From NCBI RefSeq assembly GCF_964194155.1, contig NC_135891.1:49538001-49602000 (forward strand): a stretch of DNA of 64,000 nt, in the 5' to 3' direction. Shown here piece by piece: positions 8,904 through 51,360 of the stretch. A model generated the notes under the pieces. It was given only the letters and a program-made list of their open reading frames with translations. It ran no database searches and was not told the origin of the DNA. Source of the stretch: Cetorhinus maximus (taxonomy: Eukaryota). The translations under genes were made by a program, and so were the position numbers. Positions within the stretch are counted from its first letter, which is position 1. Each line of letters starts with the position of its first letter.

Positions 8904-10521
8904 CAGGTCTTCCACCTCAATTTCCAAATTTTGTCCTATTTACCCAATTGCTGGTGGGGGGGGGAGGGGGGGGCGCCTTGTCCTGGAACCCACTTCCCAC
9001 TAAATCTCTCAATTTAAGGAGGCCCAACAACAAGATGAAATGAACCAAATAGTTAACCTAGCACAGCAGAAAACAATGATTTGTTGTCCCTCGAAGTCTT
9101 CTGGCTACAAGATTTCCTCAAGCAAGAATTTTCATTTCAGTCATTTTAACACATTTAAAAAGAGAGTGCAACATGTTTGTTTTCAAAACAGCTGGTGGTC
9201 TCTGCAAATTCTATTCCTAGTTAGATTTGCAGGAGGGAATAAACAGAACCATTGCCCATTCAATGTTCCTATTACTTTGAAGGGATTTGGAAACTTTTAA
9301 AAATGAAATATAGTGTACATATGTAACATCGAAATGCTAAATATAATGGTTGAGGAGACAAAATCATTAATTGAGTTATTAAACAATATTATAAATGTGA
9401 GATTATCAAGCATTATTAGCCAATTGGTAAGTGTTTCTCTTTAAATGTGATTTGATTGAAGGACTGTTATTGAAGACAGCCAACACAGATACATTTTGCT
9501 TGGAGGCAATCATTAACAGATTTTTTTTGCAGAACTAATGAATACATTTTGTACATCATTTGCAACCAGTAAGTTGATCTTTCGCCCCATATGTTGCCAT
9601 AACAACTGGCCTAAGCATTCCTTTGAAGGTTATGTAGGCCATAACAGCAGTATCTACATAATATTGTCAATTTTCTCACACTATTAATTTGTTTCCATTA
9701 TGATACCCTGAGCCTACAATAATTTCACAATATTATTTTACATTTTGAAGTAGATTTAATGTAAATTTAAAGACTTTTGATAGATTTTCTGGTCATTTGC
9801 ATCAGATGTACAAGCACAGGAGAATTGGCTGAGCAGTCATACATTGTACCAAATTCACTCTGCCTGACCAACTGCACTTTGTACAATTTCACCAACAGCC
9901 TTTTAAACATCAGAGATTAATGCTATTCTAGACTAGATTCTTACTAGCAGCCAGATCATTGAGCAGAGTTATAGCAGGAGCTCATATAAATCCAAGATTG
10001 CGAAGCTCTCCTCCTGGCCCTCTTATAAGCCATGTTTAGAATAAGCCAACATTCTGTCCATCCTAGGCACTGTTGGAAATTGCTGATCCTTCCTCCTCTG
10101 GGAGGAGATCGCCCAGTTGCAGACCTTGCCCAGATTTCCACCCTCCCCAACCTTAAGTTTATTCACTCAGTCTTCTAGTCAGCCCAAGGATTCTCACATG
10201 CAACATGCCTGTTGAGCTCTCTTCCACCTGTTAATAACATTCTGTCTGTCCATAAATGGTACAATAACTTAGGGAACAAGTCAAAGACAATGTAGTCAAA
10301 CCATTATAACAGAGCTATTTGCAATAAAATGATTGTTTAAATTAGAATAGGATTTCTGTCCACCCATAGGATAGCTGTGAAAACCCTAACTATTTTTCTG
10401 GCTTAAATGGTCCTCATTGTGTCCATAAAACAGGGTAACAGCCATCTTTCTGCTGCTAAAACAAAAACAGAATTACCTGGAAAACCTCAGCAGGTCTGGC
10501 AGCATCGGCGGAGAAGAAAAG

Positions 10522-10560
10522 AGTTGACGTTTCGAGTCCTCATGACCATTCAACAGAACT
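10522..10560 (-). ncRNA. Minimal hammerhead-ribozyme-like motif (variant core CUGUUGA)
   Basis: Minus strand agtt-CTGTTGA-a-tggtc atgag gactc-GAAAC-GTC-aact. Confidence 0.6.
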
Positions 10561-11178
10561 GAGTAATATTAGGAGAGGGGTCAAATATAAGCTGGTTTAA
10601 GGTGGGGGGGGTGGAGGAGAGAAGTGATAGGAGCAGATAATCAAAAGATGTCACAGACAAAGGAACAGAGATGTTGAAGGTGGTGATATTATCTAAACGA
10701 ATATGCTAATTAAAAATAGATGGCAGGACACTCAAGGTACAGCTCTAGTGGGGGTGGAGTGGAAAGACTAACAGGGCATTAAAAGTATAGATTTAAAAAT
10801 AATGAAAATAGGTGTGGTGGGAAAAGAAAAATCTATATAAATTATTGGAAAAAACAAAAGGGAGGGGGAAGAAACGGTAAGGGGGTGGGGATGGAGGAGG
10901 GAGTTCAAGATCTAAAATTGTTGAATTCAATATTCAGTCAGGAAGGCTGTAAAGTGCCTAGTAGGAAGATGAGGTGCTGTTCCTTCAGTTTGCGTTGGGC
11001 TTCACTGGAACAATGCAGCAAGCCAAGGACAGACACGTGGGCAAGAGAGCAGGGTGGAGTGTTAAAATGGCAAGCGACAGGGAGGTACAACCACCGCCCC
11101 CCCACCCCCCCAAACTTCTCTCCCCCCACCCCCCCACCTTAAACAAGCTTATATTTCACCCCTCTCCTAATATTACTC

Positions 11179-11216
11179 AGTTCTGTTGAAGGGTCATGAG
11201 GACTCGAAACGTCAAC
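11179..11216 (+). ncRNA. Minimal hammerhead-ribozyme-like motif (variant core CUGUUGA)
   Basis: gtt-CTGTTGA-a-gggtc atgag gactc-GAAAC-GTC-aac: stem I gtt/aac, stem II gggtc/gactc. Confidence 0.65.
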
Positions 11217-12269
11217 ACTTTTCTTCTCCGCCGATGCTGCCAGACCTGCTGAGTTTTTCCAGGTAATTCTGTTTTTGTTTTGGATTTCCAGCATCCGCAG
11301 TTTTTTGTTTTTATTTCTGCTCCTAACTGTTTTGTTACCACTGGGAGGGTGAGAAACATTTTGACTGCAGTAGTTAAAAGGCCAAAGTAGCTTAAAGTGT
11401 CAGAAGCTCTTGAATTGGAGGAATAGAGATGGAAGCAATGAGAGCCTTGTGATGCCCACCTGGAGTGTATCTGTCACCTTCTTAATGCAATAACATATTG
11501 TAGATGGACTTCTACAACTGTGGTCACATGAGGCTACCTGGAATGGCTTCAGAGCCTATGAATGATAGGCTGTGGTCACTTTAGCATCTGAAGACTGTGG
11601 TGTGCTGCATGTTTGTAACAACATTTAGTATAAATTCCCAATAGCAGGGAAACACGATGCATTGCCTCCTGGAAAAATTGAAGTTGGACCTCTAAAGTCT
11701 TAAGATACTGTGGAGTGGGTATTAATTTATTGGAAACAAATGTCTGCTGTGTTGCCTCATTCTGAGTTATCAAGGTTCTTCCTTCTCATCCATGCACATC
11801 TTCCTCCATGCAGATGTAAACGCTAGGCTCAGGATGGATAGTAAAGGGGAACTGGTCATTTTCTTTGGAGTAAAAGTGTTCACCTATTTCTCAGAGCAGG
11901 ATGTGGGGTCATGGCACTTCACCCAATTTATTTCTGCATAACAAAAATGCAGCCCTTCATTCGAAATAACAATCGGGTTTAAGCACAAACTGTTTAAGAG
12001 TTTTATGGCTGTAAGTTGACATACCCTAGATTCCAGGTACATGGTCTGCGATTCAAAACCTGCCACACCAATTCCATTAAATGTGGTGCTCCTGCCTCAC
12101 TATCCTGGATGCAGTGGAGGGCTGAGTGTCTGTAGCACTGCTGGTTGCCTCTGCACTATGCATGGACCAAACAGCGTTGCCTTAATAGCATAAGATGCAG
12201 CCAGCCTGTTCTTCTTAAAGGGAAGCTGCTCGAACTAATATTGCTGCAATTTAAAACATGAAAGATCAA

Positions 12270-15234: not shown

Positions 15235-15937
15235 AGCCACAAGATTTACTTGAGGGCATGAGGTGGACAGGGGTGAAGGGAATTTCCAGATGGGAAAACC
15301 AAAGTGAAGGTTTCTCAGATGTCCTTCTAAAATCAACAGCAGGGTGACTTTTAATTTTTTTCAGCAAGATTTCCTGCCCATCTGCCAGCCTGATTGTCAA
15401 GCTGGATGCCTGTTGGGTGGGAAAACCTATAGCACCATGCCATAGTCAGGGAGCAGAGGGGAGGGGGAGAATGGGATGAGCGGGGGAGGTATCTAAGGCG
15501 GTGATCGCAGAGTCCAGGAAGGTGGGGAGGGCATGGGGGTGGCCAACCATGGGGTCTGCAAAGAGATGCGCTTGTTGGGCTGGAAGGAACCACTTCTGTT
15601 CTTCCTGCCCACAAACATTGCTGTAAATCCATTTACCTCATGAATGTGGCTCTTCTCACTTTCTTATGCCTGTCAGAAGTTCTGAGTTCTGAGTAATTCA
15701 GCAGATATTATTAAAAAGTAAAAACCATGTTGAAATGGAGGCGTGCAGCCTCCTTAAAAAGATTCCAGTGACTGATTCTCCTCCTGATACCAGATTAGTC
15801 ACCCAAACACATCCCACCTCTTAAAACTGGAAGTGGGCAGTTTGGAGGCAGGCTGAGGTGGTGTTTGAAATTTAACATTTTTGCTTCTCATCTGAATCAA
15901 ACTCACTTGGGAGTTCTTGGGAGTTAAATTATTCCCA
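15235..15937. mobile_element. Degenerate Harbinger-type MITE
   Basis: GC-rich island. Right part (ggaagtgggcag...ttaaattattccc) resembles the reverse complement of the termini at 25150 and 53075. No clean TSD. Confidence 0.4.
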
Positions 15938-22767: not shown

Positions 22768-24607
22768 CGGTGAGTCCTCACTTTAAAGTTGCGGTTGCGT
22801 CCCTGAAAATCACGACTTTAAGTGAAACATTGGTTTCCATAGTGATCAATGTTAAAACTGTAGTTAGCTTCTGTAGGACCTTCCTTATCAGGAAAAACAA
22901 ATATTAAAACATTGGGCTGTAACTTTCAACGAGCGTCGGAAAGTGCTGGCCCACAGGAATTAGAAGAAATAAATGCACACATACCTGGTCTTGAAATTTA
23001 CGCTGACCCTTACATTCGCCCGAGCTGCTTGAGGCATCGAAAGACTCCTCGCAGGCCCCAGTGAAGTCCAGCTCCGGCAGATTCAAGGAAGCCATGCCCT
23101 TTTTTTAATGGCACTTGTTGACGTAAAGCAGGTAACTTCAAAGGGCCAGTGAAATTGACAGGCCAGGGAGAAGGTAAGTGACTAAGGTAAGTGGATAGGA
23201 TTTGGAAGGATAGCAGGGGTCTGGGGAATGGGGGGATCCAGAGGGGCCTGGGAGAGTCCGGAGGTGCCTGGCGGGGGTGGAGCGGGAGGGGGAGGAGGAG
23301 GGGGAGGGGTGCCCGGGCGGATTTTGGGAGGGGTGGAGGTGAGGATCGGAGGTCCGGTAGGGTGGGGGTGGAATCAGAGGTCCTAGGGTGTGGGGGATGG
23401 TGGTGAGGGGAGTGGGGGGGGCGGAGGTCTGCGGGGAATTGGGGGGGCAGGGGAGGTCAGAGGCCCATGGGAGGGGGGTACGGTTTGTGGTCGGATGGGT
23501 GGGGGGTTGGTGTTCTGAGGTTGGGGGTGAATTGGGGAGATCAGAGGTGGAGGGGTGGGGGGGATCAGAGCGATCAGAGGTGGAGGGGTGGGGGTGATCA
23601 GAGCTCGGGGGAGGGTTGGTGGGCTCTAAGATTGGGGGTGGGGCCAGTCTACATCTTTACAACAGTTACCCAGAAGTTAGAAGAGCTTTTAATTCATCTA
23701 ACTTCTTCTGAGTAACTATTGGTGTGACCCTGGCTCAACCATCTGAAGTTTGCGATTTAAATCACATTTTTAAAAGGTTCCCAGTGCAGGGCAATTGTCC
23801 AGGGGAAGTGTGCACTTCTGGACAATTGGTTCGCAAACCTTTACCTGGGAAGTTCCCAGAGGGATTCCCCACCGCATCTTTAGGGTACCGCCCCTCCCCA
23901 AATCCAAGGCTAGGGAGCTCGGAGGTTACGGCCCATTATATCCTCTAAGTTGAAATATTTTACATTGCTAAGTTTCTACATTTGTAAATAAAATAACTTT
24001 TACAATAAAATAACTTTAAAAACATAAACGAAAAATGTAACTTGCCATCTACAATATCTCCTGCTTGCCACAGACCCTGCTTCCTGAACCTCCCACTTCC
24101 CGATCCTCCTGGTCACTACAGATCCTTCCCTTCCCCGACTTCTGAGTTGTGGCCTCCCCAACCCACTATCTGCCGAACCACCCACTCCCTGACTCATCCT
24201 CTCACCACTTCCCTCTTCTGAAACCCATGTTCCCACTGAAGATCCAGAACCGATCCGATCAGATCAGAAACCCGATCTCTGATGTTGTGGAAGCGCAAGT
24301 CCCAATGATGCAGGAGTGCTGAAATGGGGTGGGGGGTCTCAGGAGAAGAGTGGCGAGTGAGAGCATTTAAATACACTTAGATTGTAGCAGCCTTAGCACA
24401 GCACTTCTGCACCATTGGGCCTCACACTTCCAAAACATCGGAGCTCCAGCTTCAGATCGGATCTGGATCTTCAATGGGAACACAGGTTTCCCCAATCGGG
24501 ACACATGGGAAACGATGTTAAAACAAGCCTCGTAAGGCTCAACAAGATTACAGGCCCCATTAACTCGTCAACATTAATGCGAAGCAACACTAAATGAGGG
24601 CTTGCTG
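22768..24607. mobile_element. pogo/Tigger-like (Tc1/mariner) non-autonomous element
   Basis: Left end cggtgagtcctcacttta vs reverse complement of right end cagcaagccctcattta. TA on both flanks. Confidence 0.7.
22914..23934. mobile_element. Harbinger-type MITE nested in the pogo-like element
   Basis: TIR gggctgtaactttc / ggaggttacggccc. TSD ATT on both sides. G-rich core at 23190-23643. Confidence 0.88.
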
Positions 24608-36874: not shown

Positions 36875-37068
36875 CTTAACCTATCCTAAGCTTCCCTTTT
36901 GTTCTACCCGATGCTCTCCCCTTTTCCAACAGCCTAAAGCCCATCACATTTCTACCTCTCTTCAGTTCTGAAGAAGTAATATTGAACTCGAAACGTGAAC
37001 TTTGTTTCTCTCTCCACAGATGCTGCCAGACCTGCTGAGTTTTTTTCAACATTTTCTGTTTTTATTTA
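36875..37068 (+). mobile_element. Penelope-like 3' region with hammerhead-like motif (36964-37001)
   Basis: agtt-CTGAAGA-agtaatattgaactc-GAAAC-GTG-aact followed by agatgctgccagacctgctgagt, as in 11180-11310. Confidence 0.8.
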
Positions 37069-45221: not shown

Positions 45222-46960
45222 AACATAGAATCATAGAAAGTTTAGAAAGAGGCTACTTGGCACATTGTGTTTGTGCAGCTGAAAAATGAGCCACCCAGCC
45301 TAATCCCACTTTCCAGCATTTTGTCTGTTGTGCTGCAGGTTACTGCACTTGAGGTGCATACCTAGACACCTTTTCAATGAGTTGAGGGTTTCTGCCTCTA
45401 CTACCCTTTCAAGTAGTGAGTTCCAGATCGCCATAACTGTCTGGGTGAAAAAACTTTCACTCATCTCCCCTCTAATCTTTCTACCAATCACTTTGAACCT
45501 ATGCCCCCTAGTTACTGACCTCTCTGCTAAATTAAATCGGCCTTTTCCATCGACTCTATCCAGGCCTCTCACAATGTATATAAACAAAAAACTACTGCGG
45601 ATGCTGGAAATCCAAAACAAAAACAGAACCACCTGGAAAAACTCAGCAGGTCTGGCAGCATCGGCGGAGAAGAAAAGAGTTGACGTTTCGAGTCCACATG
45701 ACCCTTCAACAGAACTGAGTATAATTAGGACCCCTCTCCTAACTATACTCAGTTCTGTTGAAGGGCCATGTGGACTCGAAACGTCAACTCTTTTCCTCTC
45801 ACAATGTTGTACATTTCAATCAAATCCCCCCTCAGCCTCCTCTGTTCCATGGAGAACAACCCCAACCTATCCAATCTTTCCTCATAGCTGCAACTTTCCA
45901 GTCCTGGCAACATCCTCATAAATCTCCTCTGTACCCTCTCTAATGCAATTTCATTTTTTTCTGTAATGAGGTGACCAGAACTGCACACAGTAAAGTTCTG
46001 GCCTAACTAATGTTTTATATTGTTCCAGCATAACCTCCCTGCTCTTATATTCTATTCTTCGGCTAATAAAGGAAAGGATTCCACATGCCTTCTTAACCAC
46101 CTTATCAAACTGTCCTGCTACTTCAGGGATCTGTGGACATTCACTCCAATGACCCCCACTTCATCCACACCTCTCAGTACCCTCCCATTTATTGTGTAAT
46201 CATTTGCCTTGCTTGACCTCCCAAAATGCATCACCTCACACTTCTCCAGGTTGAATCCCATTTGCCACTTTTCCTCCCACCTGACCTGTTCATTAAAATC
46301 TTCCTGCAGTCTACAGGAATCCTCCTCGCTATCTACCGCACAACCAATTTATGTGTCATCTGCAAATTTCTTGATCTTTCCCCCTACATTTACATCCAAA
46401 TCATTAGTATGTACCACAAAAAGCAGGGGACCTACTACTGAGCCCTGCAGAACCCCTTTGGAAATAACCTTCCAGTCGCAAAAACATCCATCAACCATTA
46501 CCCTTTGTTTCCTGCCATTGAGCCAATTTTGTATCCAGCTTGCTACATTTCCCTGGATCGCATGGGACTTTTTAAAAAAACCAGTCTGTCATGTGGGACC
46601 TTGTCAAAAGCCTTGATAAAATCCATGTAGACTACATCAACTGCACTACCCTCATCAATCCTCTTTGTTACCTCCTCAAAAAATTCAATCAAATTAGACA
46701 GACACAACCTTTCCTTAACAAGTCCATGCTGACTGTCCTTAAGTAACCCATGCCTTTCTAAGTGACAGTTTATCCTGTCCCTCAGAATTGATTCCAATAA
46801 TTTGCCCATGACTGAGGTCAGACTGACTGGCTTGTAATTATCCTGTCTATCCCTCACTACCTTTTTTAACAAAGGTACAACATTAGCAGATCTCCAATTC
46901 TCCAGCACCTCACTTATATCCAGTGAGGATTGGGAAATGATGGTCAGAATTTTATATTCC
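45222..46960 (-). mobile_element. CR1 LINE, 5'-truncated, interrupted by a Penelope mini-insertion
   Basis: WRSANVVPLLKK...NYKPVSLTSVMGKLLE...YMDFIKAFDKVPH and LERVQRRFMRMLPG...RLRGDLIEMY. Tail catagaatcatagaa equals (ttctatga)n on the minus strand. Confidence 0.95.
45578..45794. mobile_element. 217-bp palindromic Penelope-derived insertion
   Basis: Perfect 13-bp TSD cctctcacaatgt (45565-45577, 45795-45807). Arms 45673-45730 / 45737-45794. Hammerhead-like motifs at 45678-45716 (-) and 45751-45789 (+). Confidence 0.92.
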
Positions 46961-47050: not shown

Positions 47051-48759
47051 TCCCACGGCATAAAGTTGGGTTCTGATGATGTACATACAGATGAAATATT
47101 AACTTATCTTGTTATGAATGGCTACTGACTGCTCTGAATTCCCAGCATTTGCTGTTTGTACTCTTCAGTGTGGACAACCCAAAAGCAACTTCACTGCCAT
47201 ATCAACATATCCAAAAGTCTACTACCTGCTTTAGGTGGCTGCCAGATGCCTGAAAAACAACCTGACAAAATATCCAGTTGGCAGTTTTTCAGGCATGTTT
47301 GAAGTACATAAAATTGCTCCCCAAAATCAACTCTCTTTGTGCCCATTTGAGATCATAAATTTGGTGAAATAAGATCCAATTTAAGTCAATGCTCCCTCTT
47401 CATTGATTCAACAGGGTCAGTTTGACTTTGCACATTAGTGGATAATGAGTGAAGTAAGTCACTATTTAAATCAGGCACGATGTAGAACAGACTGCCAATT
47501 CGCTATCATCTACAAAACATTATCTCACAAAGTTAAAATTACCCCCACATTCTTTCACCGTAATCTTTAAGTTGCTACAAAGACAGATTTGAACATTTTA
47601 AGACTCAGATTCCATCCCTCATCCCAACCTTCTCTGTTTCAAAGGAAAAAGGCCATTTTTCACCCTTTCTTCAAAGCTAGCACCTCTTATTTTTGGTTTA
47701 ATGTTTGTAAGTCTTTGCTGGACCCTATGATTCCTATAACAGAATGACCAGAACTGCACACAGCTCACCTACCTTTCCTCAGATTACCAATGAAATTTCT
47801 AGTGGCTCTCTGCTGACAATTTTATCCATTCCCCGACTTTCTCCTCTCCTCTTCTGAAGGCATAGGCATTGCCAAGTAATCATTCTCTATGACAGAGCCT
47901 GGAGGATGAATGTTCAAGGACTATTCAGAATGAGTGGACACACACCCAAGTCACATCATTTCTTTAGCAACAGCCAAATTGATGCAGTTTTTCAACAAAA
48001 CTTATGTTTCTGTGAGGCAAAAAATGTATTGGAAAAATACAGAATCCACTGTATAACTGCACTAAAAGTCACTAACATTGCACAGCAAAACTTAGCAGGA
48101 ATTTATATAAGAGTTGATCACTGGACTGTTGCTTCACGAATGATTAGCTCAACTCTTATCCTTGCTGATAGGTATTTCTAGTATAGTTATGGACAGTTCA
48201 ATTTCTCTATTTGATTATATCTTCATTATATCTTTTAGACTCATGCATTCTGCTTACTGACAAAGGGGAACTAATACCAATTAAATAAATTATTTCTTGC
48301 TGAAGCAGTAGGCATGTATCACTTATTGAGCCTGTTTGGTAAGTCAGATCTTATTCAATAAAATTCAGATAATGCACTAAATCTGTGCATTTCTCTGGTG
48401 GCTAATCATGGGACCTTTAAAAGCACAAACTATCAGAGTGTTGAAGGGAACCCTATGGAGTTGAGAAAACCCAATGATTTACCTCTATTCTTGGATTCAT
48501 GTTGGGAAACAAGTTTGACACCTTAGGAAAAGCTGTTGTCCTCCTGGAATTTTCAGCATTCACATTTCAACATCAGGCCATCTGGTCAGGTAGTCAGCTC
48601 ACTCAGAGGTAAAGTAGGTGAATTTCATTCACACTTGGTGTAGATACATGATCTTTGTGCTCATTAGACAGGTTGCTGTGACAGAAGAGGTTACATCTGA
48701 TGTAGGAGCTTGGGCCTAGAAATTTAGGCACTCCCATTTTTGGGCTCACAGGAAGCCCA

Positions 48760-51257: not shown

Positions 51258-51360
51258 TCCAGTTCTGATGCAAGGTCACTAACCTGAAATGTTAACTCTG
51301 TTTCTCTCTCCACTGATGTTGCCTGACCTGCTGAGTATTTCCAGCATTTTCTGTCTTTGT
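51258..51360 (+). mobile_element. Penelope-like 3' fragment with decayed hammerhead motif
   Basis: agtt-CTGATGc-aaggtcactaacct-GAAATGTT-aact, then tctctccactgatgttgcctgacctgctgag. Confidence 0.75.

Follow-up and report, generated by a model that had tools for sequence, protein, structure and literature searches.

In the genome of Cetorhinus maximus, the minimal type I hammerhead in the terminal repeats of a Penelope-like element has lost A6, an invariant position of the canonical core (CUGANGA). One master lineage appears to have exchanged A6 for U and then for C, with the rest of the core and the stems kept. Judged from sequence comparison, the U6/C6 motif is probably a slowed ribozyme, assisted (most plausibly by a protein), that still cuts a small share of the RNA after GUC or GUU. 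The window, by which we mean the whole 64,000-nucleotide stretch of contig NC_135891.1 analysed here, contains four U6 copies, and an earlier note on it had taken the change either for a tolerated catalytic variant or for the sign of a role without cleavage. Our evidence leans towards a tolerated, weakly catalytic variant over a purely non-cleaving role. The lineage forms an ordered natural series (A6, U6, C6, and C6 with stronger stems), and it bears on why Penelope-like elements keep a hammerhead, given its weak cutting in vitro.

Hammerhead copies in the window

The four CTGTTGA motifs described in the earlier note were read directly in the window sequence, with coordinates and strands as reported. 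The window has five matches to the pattern CTGTTGA N10-35 GAAAC where 0.33 would be expected; the one additional to the four motifs is at 15310 and does not belong to the element family. The four motifs had been attributed to two insertions, and the target sites bear this out, each event being a pair of divergent arms with a 13-bp target duplication. Event 1 (about 10458-11319) is flanked by 10447-10459 and 11314-11326, which differ by one mismatch, and event 2 (45578-45800) by the exact duplication 45565-45577 and 45795-45807. In both events the arms point outward on opposite strands, so that the two motifs of an event cannot pair as a dimer in one transcript. Only the copy at 45678 is free of lesions; the other three each carry a private one, and all four are inert relics. 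The features of the window are as follows.

10458..11086, minus strand: 5'-truncated Penelope-like copy that spans the last part of the GIY-YIG endonuclease frame, the 3' UTR, the pseudo-LTR with its hammerhead, and the tail (BLAST to the full element in L347; translation)
10905..11084, minus strand: remnant of the C-terminal endonuclease frame with one internal stop, 44/50 residues identical to the 925-codon frame of L075 (E=5e-28)
10522..10560, minus strand: minimal hammerhead with U6 (10553) and a private G10.1U (10548); predicted cut 10526/10525 (sequence)
11100..11319, plus strand: inverted pseudo-LTR arm of event 1 (BLAST comparison with L347)
11179..11217, plus strand: minimal hammerhead with U6 (11186) and a disrupted outer pair in stem I (11217); predicted cut 11213/11214 (sequence)
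45578..45730, minus strand: minus arm of event 2, with hammerhead 45678-45716 and U6 at 45709 (sequence)
45730..45800, plus strand: plus arm of event 2, with hammerhead 45751-45789, U6 at 45758 and a stem II C.A mismatch at 45766 (sequence)
36962..37067, plus strand: older related tail with a canonical A6 core, CTGAAGA at 36968 (nhmmer)
47065..47160, plus strand: distant decayed relative, CTGATGA at 47073 (nhmmer E=0.013)
51260..51360, plus strand: third older tail with a decayed A6 core, CTGATG-C (nhmmer)

Two older related tails with the canonical core had also been claimed. The tail with CTGAAGA is a clear relative (nhmmer E=1e-34); the one with CTGATGA is a relative too, but a weak and decayed one, and the third tail listed was absent from the earlier note. 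An Rfam covariance-model scan of the window gave no hammerhead match at E<=1, and it missed the older A6 copies too. Single-copy folding of eight segments gave no z-score beyond -1.2, so folding energy alone is no evidence. Elsewhere in the window, a long inverted repeat at 24279-24441 gives a weak match, on each of its strands, to a plant microRNA model (38 bits, with a gathering threshold of 150), and is probably the hairpin of another repeat.

The Penelope-like element

In a full copy of the element (L075/L347), a C6 motif lies about 150 nt upstream of an open frame of 925 codons, and a second motif is found 3,310 nt downstream of the first. This single frame encodes both a reverse transcriptase (RT) and, C-terminally, a GIY-YIG endonuclease (EN), as in EN+ Penelope-like elements; the Pfam matches to RVT_1 (E=7e-6) and GIY-YIG (E=4e-4) are both slightly under the curated cut-offs. 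The architecture is also Penelope-like, with pseudo-LTRs, partial tandems and inverted 5'-truncated arms, as seen in L347 (pseudo-LTR, frame, pseudo-LTR and an inverted arm) and in the window events. The linker that separates RT from EN in L075, CPRRRCNTC (CX4CxxC), fits the CX2-5CxxC pattern described as a Neptune feature common to Nematis (PMC8557442). By this linker, common to Neptune and Nematis, we class the element as Neptune-type.

The motif had been identified as the terminal-repeat minimal type I hammerhead of a Penelope-like element, and its anatomy agrees. Stems I and II, a palindromic helix III without a loop, the bulge between 9 and 10.1 and the G10.1-C11.1 pair are all present, with 91% of cells paired. 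These are traits of the minimal hammerheads described from metazoan Penelope-like elements (Cervera and De la Pena 2014, PMC4209133), which are likewise type I motifs with no loop 3, a palindromic 15.2-16.2, an extra base between 9 and 10.1 and G10.1-C11.1, and which likewise occur in both pseudo-LTRs and as divergent pairs from inverted insertions. The motif lies outside coding sequence, adjoining the upstream edge of a conserved tail in which copies end. A hidden coding constraint on it was considered and rejected by hand reading, as the frame starts downstream and an ATG in the loop runs into a stop.

Several further features of the terminal repeat were noted. At L307 (G000:C1:116802000-116811900) the pseudo-LTR and the opening bases of the frame together form a unit of about 529 bp that is tandemly repeated; every unit has a U6 motif, and the array, which occurs in two orientations, resembles a non-LTR retrozyme array. 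The terminal repeat is present in contigs of four organisms (runs X1, X2, X5 and X12), and the family is therefore common to related species. Shortly before the loss of A6 the tail changed from CAGCA through CAGCTA to the splice-donor-like CAG|GTA (window 11260-11267, and all subfamilies with the GGTA tail), and L075 has a possible splice acceptor directly before its first ATG. No splice joint at CAG|GTA was found among the RNA contigs of four runs.

Position 6 in the genome

Copies were counted in the 4.0-Gb genome, both arms of inverted events included; pairs of letters below give positions 6 and 7. A pattern with 31 flanking bases fixed and only positions 6 and 7 free had 8,852 matches, of which 4,009 were TT, 1,812 CC and 3,016 others, the latter CT in all but one of the matches listed. 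A6 stood in only 15 of the 8,852, so the canonical core fails at this position; the canonical letters are kept at C3, U4, G5, G8, A9, G12, A13 and A14, in the A15.1-U16.1 pair and at H17. CTGTTGA is thus far from rare beside CTGANGA, the comparison on which the earlier note had proposed to judge it.

A second pattern, with the whole core free, had 35,179 matches. Among the first 100 of these listed, counted by hand, position 6 was U in 71, A in 14, C in 13 and G in 2, and the other core letters showed only sporadic variation or CpG decay. That U6 was present in active masters, as had been proposed, is upheld by these 71 and by the 4,009 exact copies in one context. The tail is more abundant still (73,737 matches to a 27-mer), and 98 copies fetched by the tail formed a sample not selected on the motif. 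The motif was complete in 65 of the 98, with TT in 34, CC in 13, CT in 11, AT in 6 and GT in one. Copies with G6 (CTGGTGA; L118, L136, L146, L192 and L193; 5/100 among the matches listed) lie near the transition from A6 to U6 and are possibly a short-lived side branch. The form ACCU, which breaks helix III, occurred in two of the first 100 listed of 5,275 matches; such sporadic occurrence rules it out as a subfamily.

Order of the changes

Trees were built with FastTree from the columns of the endonuclease, the UTR and the tail, after masking of the motif; many of their short forks are weakly supported. The subfamilies nevertheless form a single ladder, from AA through AT, four successive TT subfamilies, CT and CC to a CC form in which stem II has a new pair. 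Along it tip lengths drop, from about 0.06-0.08 to about 0.015, with medians of 0.058 for the old AT copies (5 rows), 0.039 and 0.030 for TT (20 and 33 rows), 0.023 for CT (6 rows) and 0.013 and 0.016 for CC (24 and 22 rows). Because the ladder runs from A6 through U6 to C6, U6 is an intermediate state and the U6 copies in the window are of middle age; the copy at 10522, whose tip measures 0.043, belongs to the last U6 subfamily. The view that U6 is the fixed mark of a young subfamily has to be abandoned, as U6 occurs in at least four successive subfamilies, the youngest have C6 and a few copies have G6. CpG decay was rejected as the source of U6, the tree placing TT before CT and CC. In the young context, A6 copies are spread over the tree, with the look of reversions that arose in dead copies. 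The oldest A6 subfamily (consensus S00) had a C.A mismatch in stem I, which was repaired to U-A before A6 was lost.

Predicted and published effects of the changes

In four U6 consensuses, U4-G5-U6-U7 is predicted to pair with A14-A15.1-C15.2-G16.2 with a probability of 0.77-0.98, against 0.00 in the A6 and C6 consensuses, as computed on consensus segments of 43 nt. U6 is thus predicted to add a four-pair helix that buries the ACGU palindrome and locks the monomer, and C6 to remove that helix. The predicted energy of stems I and II also falls, from -7.5 kcal/mol in a mid U6 consensus to -12.6 kcal/mol in the youngest C6 consensus.

Published measurements bear on the change itself. A saturation scan reports low activity for all single mutants of the CUGA turn (PMC9901934). 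For the natural A6C hammerhead of phage Bcep176, the reported cleavage is residual and metal-dependent, at 0.004-0.05 per minute in 1-3 mM Mg and about 0.3 with Mn (PMC7151607). No measurement of A6U was found in the literature on hammerhead position-6 or CUGUUGA variants.

5' ends at the predicted cut and fusions to 18S rRNA

Copies that start at the predicted cut gave 54 matches; 30 of these are junctions in inverted orientation that share 2 nt or more of microhomology, and stem I snap-backs account for half of the 30. The 5' ends free of microhomology number 4/9 at +27, 20/27 at +29, 20/54 at +31 (the cut), 22/28 at +32, 5/11 at +33 and 9 of the 20 examined (of 23) at +35. After removal of microhomology junctions and duplicates there was no sharp spike of 5' ends at the cut, only a broad rise from +29 to +32, and two of 269 copies in the general sample start at the cut. 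A cut-start search with early U6 tails gave 53 matches, which were not counted. Stem I of the youngest subfamilies is a repeated site of such inverted junctions (L367, L371, L375 and 12 more); its two strands give 6 nt of homology, and the stronger stem probably creates a snap-back hotspot.

A second kind of junction involves rRNA. On contigs C1-C24 a 24-mer from 18S rRNA has five matches, and in three of them the 18S sequence is fused to the element.

G000:C7:11639688-11639928: 18S-element fusion (L546/L547)
C21:32563996-32564258: 18S-element fusion (L548/L549)
C24 and two small contigs: 18S-element fusion with a 15-bp target duplication, in at least six duplicated copies (L550-L553, L411, L412)

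The three fusions are independent, and all join the element at nucleotide 1.1, the first after the predicted cut, and none elsewhere in it, allowing for a possible one-base shift, on both sides, in one fusion and for a single shared base in the U6 fusion. Two of the events show the junction on both arms. One tail is of a U6 subfamily (one difference from S04, at least four from the others) and two are of the youngest C6 type; the U6 fusion is a single event, assigned to its subfamily from the tail alone. Because the 24-mer was chosen from the first event, the other two are independent tests, and we estimate the chance of two junctions within 2 nt, if they could fall anywhere in about 100 nt, at near 4e-4.

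At the 18S end shared by the fusions, 24 of 24 rRNA array copies checked continue differently. In one further case this end is joined to an abundant LINE-like repeat, putatively CR1-like, at the repeat's 3' end (L516, G000:C1:197992656-197992679). Such fusions therefore need no ribozyme, and the 18S end is a general donor; the shared end suggests a recurrent ligatable break in an 18S hairpin. What is special to the element fusions is the fixed acceptor position.

Constraint on the motif after the loss of A6

A walk along the subfamily consensuses is partly circular, because the groups are defined by motif letters. A non-circular test was made on 142 long rows, from which one near-duplicate and 17 second arms were removed; 10 old A6/G6 rows were left uncounted, giving 114 post-loss rows. 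Inner branches carried no change at any of the 23 sites in the core, stem I, helix III and the bulge; by comparison, 124 of the 392 sites in the UTR and spacer had changed (Fisher p=3e-4), and so had five of the seven sites that are free in hammerheads (N7, H17 and loop II; p=1.5e-4). The changes at H17 were between U and C only. The 30-nt tail adjoining the motif was as constrained (1/30 sites changed), so that constraint alone does not prove catalysis, and in the consensus walk the contrast between the motif and four-fold degenerate sites of the frame (8/54 changed) was not significant (p=0.10).

The changes in stem II preserved pairing, first from A-U to G.U and then, in the youngest subfamily, from U-A to C-G. 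A hand count of the first 100 listed of 6,845 matches gave C-G in 82, U-A in 17 and C.U in one, with no G.U or C.A intermediate of the double change among them; one U.G copy occurs in the tail-anchored sample. Covariation of stems I and II had been proposed as a check on the ribozyme reading, and its outcome is divided: there is one compensatory double change in stem II, but a formal covariation statistic on 14 hand-picked rows was not above shuffles (271/500).

These observations bear on three other explanations. In the first, the motif no longer cleaves and is kept as a fold or a protein site (for RT/EN recognition, as a promoter or in splicing), A6 having been lost because only catalysis needed it. 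The acceptance of U, C and occasionally G at position 6, the lock predicted for U6 and the equal conservation of the adjoining tail would all follow. Insertion of the green anole element in vitro is reported to be unimpaired by catalytic mutants (PMC11167929), and Naiad elements are described as amplifying without canonical hammerheads (PMC8557442). We still consider this explanation unlikely, as the catalytic G8 and G12, the C3-G8 pair and G5 are unchanged, H17 is never G, and the three independent fusions at nucleotide 1.1 are left unexplained.

The second explanation, which we hold to be more doubtful again, is that another agent cuts the site, either transcripts of older A6 relatives acting in trans through stem I and the ACGU palindrome or a protein nuclease, or else that nucleotide 1.1 is a transcript start or an RT stop. 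The fusions would then be accounted for without catalysis by a core lacking A6. A pure substrate strand, however, needs no CUG-GA, GAA or stem II, yet all of these are fixed and the stem II pair is compensated, and the capped or triphosphate end of a transcript start is not an RtcB substrate (PMC6789731). To its credit are the broad rise of 5' ends and the abundance of A6 relatives with an identical stem I and palindrome (14 among the first 100 listed of 35,179). The third, that the motif is a vestige decaying neutrally since the loss of A6 and looks conserved through short time and pattern-based sampling, is very improbable and largely refuted: many copies were fetched by patterns inside the motif and the four-fold-site contrast falls short of significance, but the tail-anchored and core-free samples show no common variant at other core sites, CpG decay aside, the flanking UTR changed at about a third of its sites on the same branches, and the stem II double change is fully linked.

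A probable slowed ribozyme in the element's life cycle

If the U6/C6 motif is a slowed ribozyme, its position offers a setting for slow cutting. Priming would take place in the tail downstream of the motif, so the RT must cross an uncut 3' hammerhead to copy the body of the element, and slow cutting would cost little or even help. Copies that run through an intact motif make up 80/132 and 85/137 of a sample partly chosen by motif patterns, which fits an uncut linear template and also a circle that was cut and religated. One circular template is unlikely for L347 only, because its two motifs differ at several diagnostic sites. To fold, the motif would have to associate with another copy by way of the ACGU palindrome, and it would probably also require the protein that the element encodes, as is reported for the anole element. 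Rare cut products would carry a 5'-OH at nucleotide 1.1, be joined to an rRNA fragment by RtcB-type ligation or a template jump, and be inserted as chimeras.

Taken together, these steps allow a fuller scenario that we offer tentatively, with a little less than even confidence. A hammerhead with U or C at A6 would cleave in vertebrate cells, tuned down because the template must stay mostly uncut; the U6 lock would later have been released and both stems re-stabilised, and the genome would hold fossils of the 5'-OH product ligated to a fixed break in 18S rRNA.

Relation to known hammerheads and retroelements

The motif has the anatomy of a minimal hammerhead of Penelope-like elements with a core that departs from the canon at A6, and A6C is already known from one phage. 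In the text of PMC4209133 the sole core change described is U3-A8, whereas position 6 is U or C here. The Bcep176 hammerhead (Perreault 2011, PMC3088659; Naghdi 2020, PMC7151607) is changed at the same core position. It is described as a single phage example with full helices, in contrast to the minimal, dimer-type motif found here, in which U preceded C and which occurs in tens of thousands of copies. The literature searched, which did not extend to Lunse 2017, Nelson and Uhlenbeck 2008 and the figures of Cervera 2014, yielded no retrotransposon with a U6/C6 series and no paper on this lineage.

The Poseidon element PAc of the green anole (PMC11167929) likewise has its hammerhead directly upstream of the priming tail. 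In that report the uncut RNA is the main template, and the hammerhead cuts only with the element's own protein. Whereas the PAc frame begins within stem II, the present one begins about 130 nt past the cut, and its linker is the CX2-5CxxC of the Neptune/Nematis type. We found no mention of an A6 change in PAc. In this sole reconstituted system, insertion in vitro did not require the hammerhead, and no RNA ends were observed.

The fusions resemble U6/LINE-1 chimeras (Moldovan 2019, PMC6789731), in which a small RNA with a fixed 3' end is joined to retroelement RNA and the two are inserted as one; those are described as made by RtcB ligation, with U6 snRNA as the donor for L1. The L1 partners are variably truncated. 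Here a fragment of 18S is the partner, and all three junctions coincide with a single predicted cut site. Cutting in vivo is suggested by these rRNA fusions, which, if this is true, would be direct in vivo evidence that Penelope hammerheads cut. Searches with descriptors that fix CUGANGA miss tens of thousands of such motifs per genome.
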